Origin: Nitrospirota bacterium
GTDB lineage: Bacteria > Nitrospirota > UBA9217
Assembly: GCA_963663225.1 (NCBI GenBank)
Contig: OY760142.1
Span: 128,001 to 192,000 of the forward strand
DNA: 64,000 nucleotides
Reading direction: 5' to 3'
Shown piece by piece: positions 5,101 to 64,000 of this stretch; the first letter of the stretch is position 1; every line of letters starts with the position of its first letter. The position numbers and the translations under genes are program-made. Below the pieces are notes generated by a model. It worked only from the letters and a program-made list of their open reading frames with translations. It was not told where the DNA came from and made no database searches.

Positions 5101-5175
5101 TGGTAGGCCCGGGCGGTTTCGAACCGCCGACCTCTACCGTGTCAAGGTAGCGCTCTCCCCCTGAGCTACGAGCCT
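5101..5175 (-). tRNA. tRNA-Val(GAC)
   Basis: Reverse complement AGGCTCGTAGCTCAGGGGGAGAGCGCTACCTTGACACGGTAGAGGTCGGCGGTTCGAAACCGCCCGGGCCTACCA folds as a cloverleaf with anticodon GAC and encoded CCA. Confidence 0.97.
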
Positions 5176-57201: not shown

Positions 57202-58509
57202 TTATGCCCGCACTACATTGCCCTTATTCTTGATTTTGCTCGTCGCGTTTCTGGCATCTACAATCAGTGCGGAGTTTTGGACAAGGAATTCATAATCATA
57301 GGAAGAATGGTCTGTGGAAATCAGAACGCAGTCATATTGTTTTAGGGACTCCTTTGTCAAGGGAACTGAGTTCTTTTTAAGGTCATACATGCGCATCTTG
57401 TGCGTCTGCGGGACATAGGGGTCATTATAATCAACATCTGCTCCATGTTCCATAAGAAGCTCTATCAATTTCAAGGACGGCGATTCACGGACATCATCGA
57501 TATCTTTTTTGTATGCAAGCCCCAGAAGCAAAATCTTTGATGCTTTGATGCTTTTACCTCTTTCATTCAGCGCATGAATGACTTTTCCGATGACATAATA
57601 CGGCATGGACGTATTTATTTCACCGGCCAGTTCTATGAATTTCGTGTTGAAATCATATTCGCGCGCCTTCCAAGTGAGGTAAAATGGATCGATAGGAATA
57701 CAATGGCCGCCAAGCCCGGGTCCCGGGTAGAAAGCTTGAAAGCCGAATGGCTTGGTTTTTGCCGCTTCAATGACTTCACACACGTCGATCCCCATTCTGT
57801 CGAACAGGATTTTCAACTCGTTCACCAGCGCGATATTTACCGCCCGGTATATGTTTTCAAGCAGCTTTGCCGATTCCGCCACCTTGGTGGATGATACCGG
57901 CACGGTTTTTTCAACAATCGCACTGTATAATGCGTTCGCGTACTTCAGGCAATCTGCAGTATATCCACCGACCACCTTGGGTATCGTGCTGGTGGTAAAG
58001 TCCTTGTTATTCGGATCTTCACGCTCAGGTGAGAACGCTAGATAAAAGTCCTTTCCTGCTTTCATGCCTGTTTTTTCGAGTATGGCCCGCATGTCTTCAT
58101 CGGTTGTGCCGGGATATGTTGTCGATTCCAGGGAAATAAGCTGTCCTTTTTGCAAATATTGCGCTATGGTTGTTGTCGTATTGAATACATAGGAAAGATC
58201 CGGTTCACGCTGTTTGTTCAGCGGCGTAGGAACGCAGATGATAATGCAATCCACATCACGAAGCACGGAGAAATCCGTTGTTGCGTGAAAACGGTTGTTT
58301 TTTCTCAAAGCCGCCGTATGCTCGGAAGGAATGTGTTTTATATAAGACTTGCCTTCATTCAGCGACAATACTTTCTTTTCATCAAGATCAAATCCTATTA
58401 CATTGAACCCCTGCTTCTCGAACGCCATCACAAGAGGCAATCCTACATACCCCAGACCGATGACCCCCACCTTCGCTGTTTTTTCTTCAATTTTTTTTCC
58501 TAAATCCAT
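57202..58509 (-). CDS. Nucleotide-sugar (UDP-GlcNAc-type) 6-dehydrogenase, WbpA/WecC family
   Basis: GLGYVGLP, CVPTPL, ESTTYPGTT, SPERED, GGHCIPIDP, DVRESP. Confidence 0.93.
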   Translation of the reverse strand: MDLGKKIEEKTAKVGVIGLGYVGLPLVMAFEKQGFNVIGFDLDEKKVLSLNEGKSYIKHIPSEHTAALRKNNRFHATTDFSVLRDVDCIIICVPTPLNKQREPDLSYVFNTTTTIAQYLQKGQLISLESTTYPGTTDEDMRAILEKTGMKAGKDFYLAFSPEREDPNNKDFTTSTIPKVVGGYTADCLKYANALYSAIVEKTVPVSSTKVAESAKLLENIYRAVNIALVNELKILFDRMGIDVCEVIEAAKTKPFGFQAFYPGPGLGGHCIPIDPFYLTWKAREYDFNTKFIELAGEINTSMPYYVIGKVIHALNERGKSIKASKILLLGLAYKKDIDDVRESPSLKLIELLMEHGADVDYNDPYVPQTHKMRMYDLKKNSVPLTKESLKQYDCVLISTDHSSYDYEFLVQNSALIVDARNATSKIKNKGNVVRA

Positions 58510-58659
58510 GGATAGTACTCCTTTCCTTAATAACATCCGATTTGCCGGCATTCTGTTTGCCGAATGAATATCTATGATTCACGTACTCGCGCCTTGTCGG
58601 TAGTATGTGCAAAAGTTTTCAGTTTGATGACGCATTGTGTGAGGTATTTTGGTGAGTCG

Positions 58660-60120
58660 TTACCGTAAGCTGGATACAATGGAGCTTACCTGCTTCTCCA
58701 TCGAGCTTTTAATGGATTCCAAAGCTTCGGGGTCGCTTGCTTCGAAACGCATGACCAGAACCGGCTGCGTGTTTGAAGCCCGGATCAACCCCCATCCCTT
58801 GTCGAAAACGGCCCGCACGCCGTCGACCGTAATAACATCTTTGGGTTTCAGGGAAATATGCTGTCCATGGGAGAATATATCTTTTGCTTTTTCTACAACC
58901 TGGAATTTAATGGCATCAGAACAATCAAAGCGGATCTCCGGAGTATTATATGTCTTCGGCAAATCAGCTATCAAAGAACTGAGTGATGCCGTATCACCTC
59001 CAGCGGATTTCAGTTTCTTAACAATTTCCACCAGGCGGCAAGCAGCGTAAATTGCATCATCGTAGCCGAAATACCGGTCGGCGAAAAAGAGATGGCCGCT
59101 CATTTCACCGGCAAGCGCCGCATGCACTTCTTTCATTTTTGATTTGATCAGGGAGTGGCCCGTCTTCCACATGATGGCATTCCCGCCATGGGCGCGGATG
59201 TCATCATACATTGTCTGGGAGCATTTTACTTCGGACACAAAAACAGCACCCGGTCGGTCAAGCAGAATTGCGCGCGAAAAAATGACCATCAGTTGATCGC
59301 CCCACAGGATGCTTCCCGTTTCATCCACCACGCCGATTCTGTCGGAGTCACCGTCAAAGGCGATGCCCATATCAGCTTTCTCTCTGAGGACGGTGTCGAT
59401 CAACGTAGTGAGATTGTGTGGAATCGTGGGATCAGGATGATGGTTTGGAAATCTGCCGTCCGGTTCTGAAAATAACTCGATCACGTCACAGTTCATGCTG
59501 TGAATAAGTTCAGGAGCTGCAAGCCCGGCAGTTCCGTTCCCGGAATCAAGGACAATCTTCAGTCGTCTGCCCTGAATAGCGCTGAATTTATTTTTAAGAC
59601 AAGCGATATAATCCTGCAAAATAGGATGGTGCGATACCGTTCCCGCTTTTGGATTTCCATCGGTTGAACCGTTCGTCGACATTTGGCCGTCTTTTTTTGA
59701 GCGCCGAATATCGTCGGCATCTGTTTCCATAATCCTTCTCAGGTTCTGTATCTCTTCACCATAAATAGTATCCCTGCCAACACAGAGCTTGAACCCGTTG
59801 AATTCCGCTGGATTATGGCTTCCGGTAATCATGATGCCTGCGCCCGGGTTGAGATGATACAGTGAAAAATAAAGCGCAGGGGTTGGACAAAGGCCAAGAA
59901 CCGTGGCGTGCATTCCGGCCGCCGTGATTCCCCGGACAAGATCATCGCACAGCCTTGGAGAACTGGTACGGGCATCATATCCCACCGTAACCTCATTCAC
60001 GTTACGAGGTCTGAGATAAGCAGCAAACCCTCTTCCCAGAGATTCAATAACCGGAGAAGTCAGATCATGATCTGCAATCCCCCGGATGTCGTATTCCCTA
60101 AAAATATCGGTGTTAATCAT
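58660..60120 (-). CDS. Phosphomannomutase/phosphoglucomutase (AlgC/ManB)
   Basis: FREYDIRG, TGSHNP, FDGDSDR, GEMSGH, RASNTQP. Confidence 0.95.
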   Translation of the reverse strand: MINTDIFREYDIRGIADHDLTSPVIESLGRGFAAYLRPRNVNEVTVGYDARTSSPRLCDDLVRGITAAGMHATVLGLCPTPALYFSLYHLNPGAGIMITGSHNPAEFNGFKLCVGRDTIYGEEIQNLRRIMETDADDIRRSKKDGQMSTNGSTDGNPKAGTVSHHPILQDYIACLKNKFSAIQGRRLKIVLDSGNGTAGLAAPELIHSMNCDVIELFSEPDGRFPNHHPDPTIPHNLTTLIDTVLREKADMGIAFDGDSDRIGVVDETGSILWGDQLMVIFSRAILLDRPGAVFVSEVKCSQTMYDDIRAHGGNAIMWKTGHSLIKSKMKEVHAALAGEMSGHLFFADRYFGYDDAIYAACRLVEIVKKLKSAGGDTASLSSLIADLPKTYNTPEIRFDCSDAIKFQVVEKAKDIFSHGQHISLKPKDVITVDGVRAVFDKGWGLIRASNTQPVLVMRFEASDPEALESIKSSMEKQVSSIVSSLR

Positions 60121-60148
60121 CGTGCGTTTACGAATCCTTTAGTAAAAG

Positions 60149-61630
60149 TTATTCGGCGGCGGGAAGCTCGGGAAGGGAATTTCTCTTCTTGGCATCATGT
60201 CTGTTGTAGTCATCGTCAAAGCGGACAATATCGTCTTCTTCAAGATACTCTCCATTCTGGACTTCAATGATCTGGAGGGGTATTTTACCTTGGTTTTCGA
60301 GACGGTGTTTCGTGGAAATAGGAATATAGGTGCTTTCATTGGGGTGCACATCATAGACTTTATCCCCATTGGTGACCCGTGCCGTACCGGCGACAACAAC
60401 CCAATGCTCGCTCCGATGATGATGGAGCTGATAGGAAAGTTTCGCCCCCGGATAAATTTCTATGCGTTTTATTTTATACCGGTCGCCGCCTTCTAAAACC
60501 GTGTAGGAACCCCACGGCCGTTGAACAGTCCGGTGCACCAAGTGTTCATCCGCTTTGCGTTTTTTAAGTTCATCTACAACTTTTTTAACGTCCTGGGCCT
60601 TCTCCTTGCTGCACACGAGGGTCGCGTCCGGGGTGTCTACAACAACAGTATCCTTTAAACCAATGGTAGCAACCAGCCGTTTGTCAGCGTAGAGAATCGA
60701 ATTGCTGCTTCCGATATCGATGACATTGCCGGTCATAATATTTCCCGAGCGGTCTCTCTCGGAAACATCATCAAGGGCCGTCCAGCTACCCACGTCTGAC
60801 CAACCGATATCCGCTGGGATGACGGCCGCGTTATCTGTCTTTTCCATGACTGCGTAATCAATGGAAATAGCGTTTATTTTTTTGAACACTTCTGCTATAA
60901 CTTCCGACTCTTTGTCAGTGCCGATGTTTCTTTTGATTTCCATCAAGCCCTGGTAGAGATCCTTCTGGTACTTTTCGATTTCCTTAAGGAATGTTCTGAC
61001 TTTCCAAATAAAAATACCGCTGTTCCAGAAATAGCGTCCGCTTTTTAGATACTCCCGAGCAGTATCGATGTCCGGTTTCTCAACAAAGGCCTCAACCCTG
61101 TTGACATTAGCAGGCATCTGGTTTCCCGGCGATGCAGAAGACACACTGGTTCCCGCTTTAATATAACCGTACCCAGTCTCCGGCCGGTCAGGTTTGATGC
61201 CGAGCGTTACCAGAAAGTCCTGTTTAGCAGCCTCAGATGCTGTTTTGAGCAGATCCAGAAAAAGATCCGATTTGCTGATAATATGATCCGCAGCAAGAAC
61301 AACTATTATGGCGTTAGGATCTATGCGCTCCAGGTGAAGCGCTGCAAGACCCAGCGCTGGCGCCGTATTTTTTGCTTCCGGCTCAAGAATAAAATTGCCA
61401 TTCCAGGTACGGTTGAACTTTGTAGAAAGTTGCTGGTTAATGGAGTCCGCAAGTGAATGATTTGTTACTATAAAAACGTCCTCAATGCGAACCATCGGAA
61501 GAACGCGGCTTACTGTTTGGAGAATAAGGGAATCCTCACCACCGATCTTTAAAAGCTGCTTCGGCGTCTTCTCTCGTGAAAGAGGCCAGAAGCGTGTTCC
61601 AGAACCACCTGCCATAATGACAGCATACAT
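60149..61630 (-). CDS. manC: Mannose-1-phosphate guanylyltransferase / mannose-6-phosphate isomerase
   Basis: AGGSGTRFWPLSR, FVEKP, WNSGIF, SIDYAVME, cupin RPWG...HHRSEHW. Confidence 0.95.
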   Translation of the reverse strand: MYAVIMAGGSGTRFWPLSREKTPKQLLKIGGEDSLILQTVSRVLPMVRIEDVFIVTNHSLADSINQQLSTKFNRTWNGNFILEPEAKNTAPALGLAALHLERIDPNAIIVVLAADHIISKSDLFLDLLKTASEAAKQDFLVTLGIKPDRPETGYGYIKAGTSVSSASPGNQMPANVNRVEAFVEKPDIDTAREYLKSGRYFWNSGIFIWKVRTFLKEIEKYQKDLYQGLMEIKRNIGTDKESEVIAEVFKKINAISIDYAVMEKTDNAAVIPADIGWSDVGSWTALDDVSERDRSGNIMTGNVIDIGSSNSILYADKRLVATIGLKDTVVVDTPDATLVCSKEKAQDVKKVVDELKKRKADEHLVHRTVQRPWGSYTVLEGGDRYKIKRIEIYPGAKLSYQLHHHRSEHWVVVAGTARVTNGDKVYDVHPNESTYIPISTKHRLENQGKIPLQIIEVQNGEYLEEDDIVRFDDDYNRHDAKKRNSLPELPAAE

Positions 61631-61724
61631 TAACCGAACCATCCTTTTATTTTTTAATGAATTGCGAATTATCTCACAGGGGCATACGGCAGTCAATGCA
61701 ATTCAACAAACGAAGCCGCTGAGC

Positions 61725-62411
61725 TTAGAAGGAGATTGATTCAAATTCCGGTTTAAGCAAAATATGTTTATCTTTTAAAATCTGAATTTCACCGTTCCGC
61801 TGCCACTTATCAAGCACCCGGGTGACCGTTTCACGCGAAAGTCCGGTCATGTCCGCGATGTCCTGATGAATGAGTTTCACCTTCAAGACGACACCAATTG
61901 CATTCTTTTCCCCGTAGTTTTCAGACAGCATGAGAAAGAGCATCTTGATTCGTTGTGCGGCATTATTAAAGTTCAACATTTGTATTTTTTTGAGTGACTC
62001 ACGAAGCCGTGCACATAAAATATTCAGGAGATTATCGAGCACTCTGGACCTGCCATAGAGCAGCGAGTAGAAATCGCGCTTCGAAATAAGCGCAACAGCG
62101 GAGTTCTTTGTTGCATATATGGTCGCAGGAGCCGTTTTTCCATCAATCAGCGACAATTCTCCGAAAAAATCGCCCTGCTGATGCATTGTCACCAGTATTT
62201 CTTTTCCCTTTTCTGTCGTTTGAATCGCCTTTCCTTCGCCGTCAAGAATGATGTACATAAATTCATTGGTATTCTCTTCGCGTAAAATTATTTCATTCTT
62301 CCTGAAATTTTTAACAATAATCTTTTCCTGAACCAGGTGGAAATCCTCCGGAGTCAGCGAGTGAAAAAGCGGATTTTTTTTTAAAAAATCTATTCGATCG
62401 TATTTTCTCAA
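61725..62411 (-). CDS. Crp/Fnr family transcriptional regulator (CRP-type recognition helix)
   Basis: FFGELSLID cNMP-binding barrel; HQDIADMTGLSRETVTR HTH; no Fnr cysteines. Confidence 0.92.
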   Translation of the reverse strand: MRKYDRIDFLKKNPLFHSLTPEDFHLVQEKIIVKNFRKNEIILREENTNEFMYIILDGEGKAIQTTEKGKEILVTMHQQGDFFGELSLIDGKTAPATIYATKNSAVALISKRDFYSLLYGRSRVLDNLLNILCARLRESLKKIQMLNFNNAAQRIKMLFLMLSENYGEKNAIGVVLKVKLIHQDIADMTGLSRETVTRVLDKWQRNGEIQILKDKHILLKPEFESISF

Positions 62412-62649: not shown

Positions 62650-62724
62650 GTTTTTTTTGTGCGTTTTGGGTATATTTAAGTTACTATATAATATATATTT
62701 AATTAAAATCTAGCGTCTTTTTCT

Positions 62725-62816
62725 TCTCTGCTCAGAGCAAACCAAGGGAAACCTTGGGACGCAAAGCAACGGGACTAATGATTTATAGACTTTCATGTCC
62801 GCCGAGCCGCCAGAGA
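62725..62816 (+). ncRNA. Cyclic dinucleotide riboswitch, c-di-GMP-I/GEMM-I family, A20 (cGAMP-type) variant
   Basis: P1 TCTCTG/CAGAGA; GCAAACC-AAGG-GAAA-CCTT-GGGACGCAAAGC core; CTAA...ATG tetraloop receptor in P3; A47 at 62763, C92 at 62810, position 20 is A at 62736. Confidence 0.9.
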
Positions 62817-62835
62817 TTTTTCTGGTGGCTTTTTC
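62805..62835 (+). terminator. Riboswitch expression-platform terminator overlapping the P1 3' strand
   Basis: AGCCGCCAGA-GATTTT-TCTGGTGGCT followed by TTTT. Confidence 0.8.
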
Positions 62836-62857
62836 TATGAAACAAGGAGGTTGTCGC

Positions 62858-63232
62858 ATGCTAAATAAAACAATACTCACTCTTCTGGCGCTGATACTGG
62901 TAGCGACCCTACAAGCTGGATGTGGCGGAAGCAGCGGACCGACCTATTCGACATCCAGCTATGGAGCTGCAACATTATCTTGGAGCCGCGCGACAACCTA
63001 TACTGATGGTTCTACGCTCACTCCTGCGGGTTACAAAATCTACTACGGCACTGCTTCAGGAACATATTCACAATATAAGCAAATTCCCCTTGGAAGTCTG
63101 GGCAATCCAAACTCACCGAGCTACACTCTCAGCCTCCCGAGGGGCGCTACTTACTACTTTGCAATTGCGGTATACGATGCGTCAAATGTTGAAAGTTCTT
63201 TATCTGCCGAAGTAAGCAAAACTGTTCGATAA
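62858..63232 (+). CDS. Lipoprotein with a fibronectin type III domain
   Basis: SD AGGAGG; lipobox-like LQAGC; ATLSWS...AGYKIYYGTASGTY...YYFAIAVYDASNVES.LS.EV. Confidence 0.85.
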   Translation: MLNKTILTLLALILVATLQAGCGGSSGPTYSTSSYGAATLSWSRATTYTDGSTLTPAGYKIYYGTASGTYSQYKQIPLGSLGNPNSPSYTLSLPRGATYYFAIAVYDASNVESSLSAEVSKTVR

Positions 63233-63303: not shown

Positions 63304-64000
63304 ATGAAAAAAATCACAAAAAATAAACTAATCTGCTACTTTTTATTAGCAGTAGTCCTCACCATCACTTCAATCATCGTTCTCTGCAACTCCGCCCAAG
63401 CTGATCCGGTTTTGCTTTTTTCCGACCTCAACTGGGGTCCAAAATCCGGTTGGGAAGGATCTACAACCAAAGGCGCGGCAGTCACCATCTGGGGAAAAAA
63501 TTTCAGCAGTTCCCGAGGCTCCAGCTATGTCACCATTAACGGAGCGCAGCTCACAAGCGCTTCTGACTATGCTGAATGGGGCGCTACCGGTCCTGCAAGG
63601 GGTCTTGAAAGAATAACGTTCTGGATCCCCAGTACCGCATCAAACGGCGACGGTCAAATTACCGTAACCGTGGGCGGCGTCACATCGAATTCACTCGCTT
63701 TCACCGTGATGACGGGATCAATCTACTTTATATCCGTGAATGATGGAAACAACAGTTACAATGGATTATACTCAACCCGTACCGGCCACACAGGTAGTGA
63801 TGGTCCATTCAAGGACATCGACATGTTTAATCCCAACTATAACCCGCAAGGGAGCACCGGTTCATATATTATCTATGTGCGAGGTGGGACCTATACCACA
63901 ACAGACCGTGTCAATGATCCAAATGCCTTTGTTGCCTTGAGAGGACCCTGCGGTTCATCGTCAAGCAGACACGCGCTGATCGGTTATCCGGCTGAGACTC
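63304..64000 (+). CDS. Secreted protein with IPT/TIG-like domain followed by a probable beta-helix; runs off the window
   Basis: Manual translation MKKITKNKLICYFLLAVV...AQADPVLLFSDLNWGPKSG...VTIWGKNF...ITVTVGGVTSNSLAFTV...IYFISVNDGNNSYNG...GPFKDI...IYVRGGTY...GYPAE; SD GAGGAG. Confidence 0.8.
   Translation, partial: MKKITKNKLICYFLLAVVLTITSIIVLCNSAQADPVLLFSDLNWGPKSGWEGSTTKGAAVTIWGKNFSSSRGSSYVTINGAQLTSASDYAEWGATGPARGLERITFWIPSTASNGDGQITVTVGGVTSNSLAFTVMTGSIYFISVNDGNNSYNGLYSTRTGHTGSDGPFKDIDMFNPNYNPQGSTGSYIIYVRGGTYTTTDRVNDPNAFVALRGPCGSSSSRHALIGYPAET

Follow-up and report, generated by a model that had tools for sequence, protein, structure and literature searches.

An A20 lineage of GEMM-I riboswitches in Nitrospirota, built as transcriptional ON switches and candidate sensors of 3',3'-cyclic GMP-AMP

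An A20 GEMM-I riboswitch ahead of a surface-protein operon

The DNA under study is a 64,000-nucleotide (nt) stretch of a Nitrospirota genome (contig OY760142.1 of GenBank assembly GCA_963663225.1, positions 128,001 to 192,000; hereafter the window). At its downstream end a riboswitch of the GEMM-I (cyclic di-GMP-I, c-di-GMP-I) family precedes two genes for exported proteins, all on the plus strand. The aptamer extends from position 62726 to 62815, that is, from the 5' to the 3' strand of helix P1, an assignment supported by the Rfam model and by covariation among homologues, and it is overlapped by an intrinsic terminator (62804-62836). A Shine-Dalgarno sequence, AAGGAGG (62844-62850), lies 7 nt ahead of the ATG of gene 1 (62858-63232), which encodes a 124-amino acid (aa) lipoprotein whose signal peptide ends in LQAGC and for which the Pfam scan returned no family. 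An upstream ATG at 62795 (open reading frame (ORF) 62795-63232) was discarded as the start of this gene: it falls inside the aptamer, and it is the ATG at 62858 that has the Shine-Dalgarno sequence. Gene 2, defined by its ORF and translation, begins at 63304 and continues beyond the end of the window at 64000; its secreted product, 846 aa in total, has a TIG domain (Pfam, 5.3e-07), a central part resembling a beta-helix and three repeats at the C-terminus, along with weak Pfam matches to DUF5123 and DUF4369. A preliminary description of the window had anticipated surface proteins rather than cytochromes downstream of the switch, and the two genes indeed encode surface or secreted proteins.

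Run on the whole window with gathering thresholds, cmscan returned two Rfam matches, a tRNA and RF01051 (c-di-GMP-I). The latter covers positions 62726 to 62814 (+) over the full length of the model (1-87 of 87), with a score of 62.4 bits (E 8.1e-10) against a gathering cut-off of 35 bits. P1 is formed by CUCUG (62726-62730) and CAGAG (62811-62815), and the P1a/P2 hairpin carries a GNRA loop, GAAA, at 62748-62751. A constant offset of 9 converts model positions to the numbering of the Vibrio cholerae Vc2 aptamer (taken from PMC6140456) at position 20, A47 and C92 alike; the roles of these residues are those described for Vc2 (PMC6140456, PMC5888326). The equivalent of Vc2 G20, and of A14 in Gs1761, recognizes the ligand's alpha base and is here A62736 (model position 11), an unpaired purine immediately 5' of the P1a G-C pair. 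A62763 (model position 38), the first A after GACGC, corresponds to A47, the adenine that intercalates in the pocket (PMC5888326). C62810 (model position 83), the first C of the 3' GCC, corresponds to C92, which makes a Watson-Crick pair with the G-beta of the ligand, and lies within the 5' arm of the terminator. Two pairs in the lower part of P3, A62765/C62808 and A62768/A62805, are flagged by cmscan as non-standard. On all these counts (family, pocket residues and P3 mismatches) the alignment agrees with the preliminary description. The score, together with 25 homologous copies whose helices covary (see below), excludes a chance match. Its membership of the GEMM-I family, its A20 and its ON design are thus certain.

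The terminator and the aptamer are mutually exclusive

The terminator scan yielded a stem of 12 pairs, in which positions 62804-62815 face 62820-62831 across a loop at 62816-62819, followed by a T run. Folded by itself, this hairpin has a free energy of -19.5 kcal/mol (z -4.73), a stability attained by none of 200 shuffled sequences. Its 5' arm (62804-62815) includes the whole 3' strand of P1, C92 and three pairs at the base of P3; since the two structures share this arm, they are mutually exclusive, as the preliminary description had proposed. The minimum free energy fold of the full leader (-41.1 kcal/mol) contains the terminator, and no aptamer-forming fold does better than -23.0 kcal/mol. 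Termination is therefore the predicted default state, the terminator fold being much more stable. Because P1, C92 and the base of P3 are all common to the terminator arm, the platform is, on these modelled folds, a transcriptional ON switch.

Its operation in vivo would be as follows. Without ligand, the nascent leader would form the terminator and transcription would halt upstream of the genes. Binding of a cyclic dinucleotide in the course of transcription would lock P1, C92 and the base of P3 into the aptamer; with the 5' arm of the terminator thus occupied, RNA polymerase would read into the lipoprotein and TIG/beta-helix genes. As to the start of the leader, TATAAT at 62687-62692 (+) might be a -10 box, an assignment of low confidence made from the letters alone; a sigma-70 scan found no sigma-70-like promoter on the plus strand upstream of the aptamer, and there is no clear -35 box.

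A20 is invariant in a lineage spanning three families

Homologues were sought in a set of 61 related genomes, including that of the window (G000), 51 of which have a match to RF01051. A total of 105 aptamers were taken from 33 genomes (the top-scoring match in most, all matches in 14) and sorted by eye into sequence classes of our own definition. The class to which the window's aptamer belongs, here labelled class A, has the consensus CUYUG-N-U-M-AG-A-GCA ... GCCGCCARAG and comprises 25 copies from 13 genomes in three families. A20, A47 and C92 are present in every one of the 25 aligned copies. The three-helix GEMM-I fold (P1, P1a/P2, P3) is supported by covariation: 94.9% of the cells are paired, 11 of the 22 pairs change on both sides, and the covariation score was reached by none of 500 shuffles, while slid controls were 30-46% paired. 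Covariation is present in P1, P2 and P3; pair 3-136 of P1, for example, occurs as UA in 11 copies, CG in nine and UG in five. The column pair corresponding to the A44-A128-type mismatch is unpaired in 17 of 25 copies and is thus a feature of the whole lineage.

The platform accompanies the aptamer throughout. As judged by eye from the folds, in all 25 copies the GCCGCCARAG arm forms part of a terminator hairpin, with a T run within 70 nt downstream. Aptamer, terminator and a downstream lipoprotein are all retained at the orthologous riboswitches of G004, G002 and G001; in G004 and G001 the lipoprotein is the orthologue of gene 1. Twelve proteins encoded downstream of class A copies were scanned: nine have Pfam matches and three have none. 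The domains found are Big_2, fn3, PKD and CarboxypepD_reg, with PilM in family f6, and no cytochrome gene was found in the 12 operons.

A 16-nt class A motif was located in 37 of the 61 genomes: that of the window, 29 of the 36 others of its family, all three of family f6, all three of family f8 and one of the two of family f10. The 16 genomes from eight other families lack it. The match in f10 (G053) is atypical and comes from a genome that lacks any RF01051 match; the reversed pattern, used as a control, gave 4 matches versus 62. In two genomes of the same genus, G002 and G004, class A is found alongside G20-type GEMM-I aptamers, a coexistence that suggests two specificities.

Some members of the set deserve separate mention. 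In two genomes of family f6 a class A switch precedes, by about 270 nt, a 353-aa ORF whose N-terminus is PilM-like (L131 in G050:C184 and L172 in G041:C112); the G050 ORF matches Pfam PilM_2 at 8.3e-86, an arrangement that echoes the Geobacter pilM cGAMP switch. A G20 class with a flipped P1a pair (AAAG-CC-AAAC ... GACGG) is expanded in G015 (27 RF01051 matches), G031 and G007 (e.g., L114 and L108). Each of its copies has its own terminator, built on the 3' strand of P3, and three of them stand in tandem in G019:C53 at a spacing of about 290-300 nt (17498, 17786, 18087).

A second A20 copy in the genome

The genome of the window is a single contig of 3.26 Mb with 49.4% G+C. Scoring 150 of 279 first-look candidates against RF01051 revealed one GEMM-I besides that of the window, at 816972-817106 (-) with 48.5 bits, so that the search for other A20 aptamers advised at the outset met with success. 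In this copy, too, model position 11 is an A; P1 is formed by CUUUG and CAAAG, the terminator is built on the same 3' arm, and the operon that it heads encodes lipoproteins carrying CarboxypepD_reg, PEGA, TPR and PD40 domains. A regular-expression scan for the core motif returned these two copies and one match judged spurious, hence no further GEMM-I and no G20 copy. No GEMM-II (RF01786) was found among the 150 of 224 candidates scored.

Candidate enzymes for synthesis and degradation of cGAMP

If the ligand is cGAMP (3',3'-cyclic GMP-AMP), the genome should encode enzymes that make it. Seventeen proteins match PF00990 (GGDEF); the guanine-reading position is Asp in 14, Asn in one and Ser in two. 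The first Ser-type protein is a 389-aa GAF-GGDEF protein (G000:C1:1947338-1948507 (+); L022:7338-8504). Its best match in the PDB is 6D9M (E 3e-32, the next being 5.8e-28), the Hypr domain of Geobacter metallireducens GacA (PMC6456294). In the alignment GHLEGS faces GHLVGS, which places a serine at position 348, and LLNYRVL faces LFNYRYL, which places a tyrosine at position 304, so that the cross-dimer residue is not Arg. Its orthologues keep the combination of Tyr, Ser and GGEEF in 29 of 30 fetched family loci (one locus being truncated) and in nine of nine from Nitrospirota metagenome-assembled genomes (60-78% identity). Orthologues of at least 60% identity are present in 35 of 36 family genomes, the exception being a genome that is 63% complete, and in none of the 24 genomes of other families. 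Among remoter matches, those with readable motifs have Asp, bar L052 (Asn) and L034, whose motif at the Ser position is unreadable.

The second Ser-type protein, of 432 aa (2398238-2399533), is HAMP-GGDEF-like and combines GYANGS with GGDDF. Pfam finds HAMP and GGDEF domains only, with neither EAL nor HD-GYP, and 25 of 28 readable orthologues have Ser with GGDD[F/Y]. In G. sulfurreducens a second enzyme linked to cGAMP is GSU1937 (PMC8835794). The HAMP-GGDDF protein has a paralogue (57% identity; G000:C1:2082277-2083578 (+)) with Asn at the position of Ser348 and a degenerate DGDDF. The recommended search for GacA-like Hypr GGDEF proteins thus produced two Ser348-type candidates, but their GGEEF and GGDDF motifs are both off the validated signature. 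A synthase of the DncV type was also looked for: SMODS (PF18144), a family that does not span all CD-NTases, has no match in the genome.

Ser-type cyclases were then surveyed in the related set. All six f6 and f8 genomes carry the class A motif, and each also has a protein with GHLxGS and GGDEF. Five of these genomes were read from 62 of 76 GGDEF matches, among which each has exactly one such protein; G058 was read from its best matches alone. The proteins have a GAF or a Rec-like plus GAF architecture, and the best PDB match of one representative is again 6D9M (E 4.9e-46). In 19 further genomes, read from the best one or two matches of each, GHLxGS with GGDEF was seen in 11 and not in eight. 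These eight genomes have Asp-only best matches; seven of them lack the class A motif, and the eighth is G053 with its atypical match. By these motifs, Ser-type GGDEF proteins appear widespread in the phylum, beyond the genomes that have class A.

A candidate for the opposite activity was found among the 11 HD-GYP domains of the genome, of which nine have Rxx[KR], one RVYY and one RSYQ. The RSYQ domain (G000:C1:2896824-2898038 (-); L277:1441-2625) aligns this motif with RPYK of PmGH (4MCW/4MDZ), the R314/K317 site. RxxQ is reported to make Myxococcus xanthus PmxA specific for cGAMP (bioRxiv 10.1101/600031), and the RSYQ domain has the RxxQ/N pattern of this type. It is therefore a candidate cGAMP phosphodiesterase.

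The ligand

We consider 3',3'-cGAMP, alone or as the preferred ligand, to be the probable physiological effector, with a likelihood of about 0.6. cGAMP would be made by the Ser348-type enzymes (GAF-GGEEF and HAMP-GGDDF) and removed by the RxxQ HD-GYP protein. Four considerations favor it: A20 never varies in a lineage found side by side with G20 classes; signatures of a writer and of an eraser share the genome with the switch; class A has been seen solely in genomes with a Ser-type cyclase; and the architecture and the regulon parallel those of Geobacter.

A number of observations weigh against this choice, and they begin with A20 itself. The statement in the preliminary description that G20A defines the cGAMP-binding GEMM-Ib subclass stands only in part: A20 permits cGAMP binding but does not set selectivity, and among A20 aptamers, natural and engineered alike, bispecificity or a preference for c-di-GMP is frequent. 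As was also stated there, some of them bind both ligands. The dissociation constants given in PMC6140456 are 53 nM for c-di-GMP and 120 nM for cGAMP in Vc2 G20A, and 30 nM and 463 nM, respectively, in the natural aptamer Cbe 1-2 (by isothermal titration calorimetry). The same source describes c-di-GMP binding via protonation of the adenine not only for Vc2 G20A and Cbe 1-2 but also for Gs1761, calls bispecificity of A20 aptamers widespread, and establishes no sequence rule for cGAMP selectivity past A20. In the window the surroundings of the pocket are Vc2-like (CAG-A-GCAAACC ... GGGACGCAAAGC). In other GEMM-I classes of the related set position 20 is A or G among close paralogues (compare G009:C53:24056-24148 with G025:C79:8911-9003, and the copies at 1401, 7573 and 11572 of G059:C31), so that outside class A an adenine at this position is no fixed marker of specificity. 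The genome has 14 Asp-type GGDEF matches and no G20 riboswitch; c-di-GMP could therefore be using the A20 switches.

The enzymes raise objections of their own, neither candidate synthase having the full validated Hypr signature. Where GacA has RYGGDEF the GAF protein has RYGGEEF, departing from the GGDE[F/Y] expected of a Hypr enzyme. PMC6456294 describes mutants with Ser348 and GGEEF as inactive and GGDE[F/Y] as the exclusive motif of natural Ser/Thr348 enzymes; the Goldilocks model put forward there holds that Ser348 needs GGDE[F/Y] and predicts that a Ser348/GGEEF enzyme is inactive. For the GSU1937 type, the activity presented in PMC8835794 is solely that of an engineered fusion. Strict co-occurrence of class A with a Ser-type cyclase was considered as a discriminating test and abandoned: 10 of the sampled genomes have Ser-type GGDEF proteins but no class A, so that the association runs one way only and is confounded by phylogeny.

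Many of these points converge on an alternative in which the architecture is the same and the ligand is c-di-GMP, or both dinucleotides, A20 being tolerated or bispecific and c-di-GMP being read via adenine protonation. The affinities of Vc2 G20A and Cbe 1-2 speak for it, as do the widespread bispecificity of A20 aptamers, the many Asp-type cyclases in a genome where neither G20 GEMM-I nor GEMM-II was found, the A/G toggling in other local classes and the predicted inactivity of the Ser348/GGEEF enzyme. It has greater difficulty with A20 in every class A copy of the three families, given that related genomes also have G20 classes; with the three cGAMP-type signatures of the genome (Ser348 twice, RxxQ once); and with the upkeep of Ser/Tyr/GGEEF in 29 of 30 loci, hardly to be expected of a dead enzyme. 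We regard this alternative as possible, if doubtful. Another purine dinucleotide or nucleotide as the ligand, such as c-di-AMP, linear pApG or pGpA, or a peculiar product of the Ser/GGEEF cyclase, is very unlikely: in vitro, Hypr GGDEF enzymes do yield all three cyclic dinucleotides and can use other purine NTPs (PMC6456294), and class A is a distinct sequence lineage, but with C92 and A47 invariant one guanine would still be read by Watson-Crick pairing, as in all characterized GEMM-I aptamers. Least credible of all is a decayed or non-regulatory remnant. The two non-standard pairs in lower P3 and the merely 48.5 bits of the second genomic copy might be taken as signs of decay; against this, the window's aptamer scores far above the cut-off, P1, P2 and P3 all covary, the orthologues in G004, G002 and G001 retain aptamer, terminator and downstream lipoprotein, and the A44-A128-type mismatch is common to the lineage. 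As to the other ligands, we know of no precedent for a GEMM-I aptamer that binds c-di-AMP, pApG/pGpA or similar compounds.

Returning to cGAMP as the preferred ligand, we tentatively propose, as rather less than an even bet, that many Nitrospirota have a complete Hypr-type cGAMP pathway. Class A would be its dedicated and ancient reader, turning on adhesin and pilus genes and genes associated with exopolysaccharide; the RxxQ HD-GYP protein would be its eraser; and in the family of the window's host an active Ser348/GGEEF GAF cyclase would be its writer, contrary to the Goldilocks model.

Genomic surroundings

The riboswitch operon sits within an island of sugar-nucleotide and polysaccharide genes on the opposite strand (57202-62411 (-) in the window and 193898-205986 (-) in the genome). 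The upstream part encodes a Crp-family regulator, a GDP-mannose pyrophosphorylase/isomerase (ManC), a phosphomannomutase and a UDP-glucose/GDP-mannose dehydrogenase. In the downstream part are genes for a CapD-like protein, glycosyltransferases, deacetylases, a sugar transferase, a DegT aminotransferase, a formyltransferase, a beta-helix protein and a Wzy-like protein. The gene of the Crp-family regulator (cNMP-binding and HTH_Crp domains; 61725-62411 (-)) is divergent from the riboswitch operon and lies about 310 nt upstream of the aptamer. In M. xanthus the GAF-type Hypr cyclase GacB is described as activated by cyclic AMP (cAMP) (10.1101/600031); that the regulator might connect the riboswitch locus to cAMP is only a thought suggested by this analogy. 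The tRNA gene of the Rfam scan lies at 5104-5175 (-), with 63.9 bits.

Implications

A20 GEMM-I riboswitches and Hypr signaling are already known kinds. To our knowledge, signaling by cGAMP through riboswitches has been demonstrated experimentally in Geobacter only. Should class A read cGAMP, the Hypr-cGAMP pathway would extend to a phylum of uncultured anaerobes, and cGAMP would there govern surface polysaccharide, adhesin and pilus genes instead of cytochromes. Class A also offers a second, independent scaffold on which to ask what, beyond A20, makes A20 aptamers selective, a question raised in PMC6140456. Should it prove bispecific or prefer c-di-GMP, it would be an ordinary member of GEMM-I and a caution against A20 as a marker of cGAMP. 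The most unexpected by-product of the analysis is the conserved Ser348/GGEEF cyclase: kept across a family together with Tyr304, it puts the Goldilocks model of substrate recognition by GGDEF enzymes to a natural test.

A literature search found no paper joining Nitrospir* with cGAMP and GEMM; the supplements of the founding papers, which possibly list A20 aptamers or Hypr GGDEF proteins of Nitrospirae, lay outside this search. Papers that mention Nitrospir* and Hypr together look unrelated by title and abstract (PMC13375341 names them separately), and preprints combining Nitrospir*, c-di-GMP-I and riboswitch concern, as listed, PilZ domains.

Comparison with known systems

The closest parallel is with the GEMM-Ib riboswitches of Geobacter (Gs1761, upstream of pgcA, and the pilM switch), which have the same GEMM-I fold, an A at the position of G20 and equivalents of C92 and A47. 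The logic of the platform is also the same: in the cGAMP ON switch of G. metallireducens pilM, the terminator sequesters C75, the cytosine that pairs with the ligand (PMC9262584). The cGAMP regulon of Geobacter includes surface, pilus and polysaccharide genes (PMC6456294), a range that resembles the genes associated with class A, and pilM itself is shared in family f6. As in Geobacter, the genome of the window encodes GacA-like Ser348 GGDEF enzymes. The differences are that the host belongs to another phylum, Nitrospirota, that its genome has two GEMM-I copies versus 17 in G. sulfurreducens, that the 12 class A operons scanned have no cytochrome genes, and that the GAF cyclase has GGEEF, not GGDEF. 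The surroundings of the pocket are presumably nearer to Vc2 than to Gs1761.

The candidate enzymes also have counterparts. The HAMP domain, Ser and GGDDF described for GSU1937 (PMC8835794) are matched by the 432-aa protein. The GAF-GGDEF architecture of M. xanthus GacB (10.1101/600031) is that of the 389-aa protein, which shares Ser348 and Tyr304 with the Rec-GGDEF enzyme GmGacA and has GGEEF in place of GGDEF.

Among the aptamers outside Geobacter, Cbe 1-2 of Clostridium beijerinckii is likewise a natural A20 GEMM-I from outside the Deltaproteobacteria. It differs in its preference for c-di-GMP, by the calorimetric values given above (PMC6140456), whereas the genome of the window has candidate writers and a candidate eraser of cGAMP. 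Vc2 belongs to the same Rfam family and is close to the window's aptamer through P1a, P2 and J2/3, the sole difference in the pocket being the A at position 20. Vc2 has G20 and is specific for c-di-GMP, its G20A mutant being bispecific (PMC6140456); the element of the window is a natural, lineage-wide A20 form, joined to an ON terminator platform.

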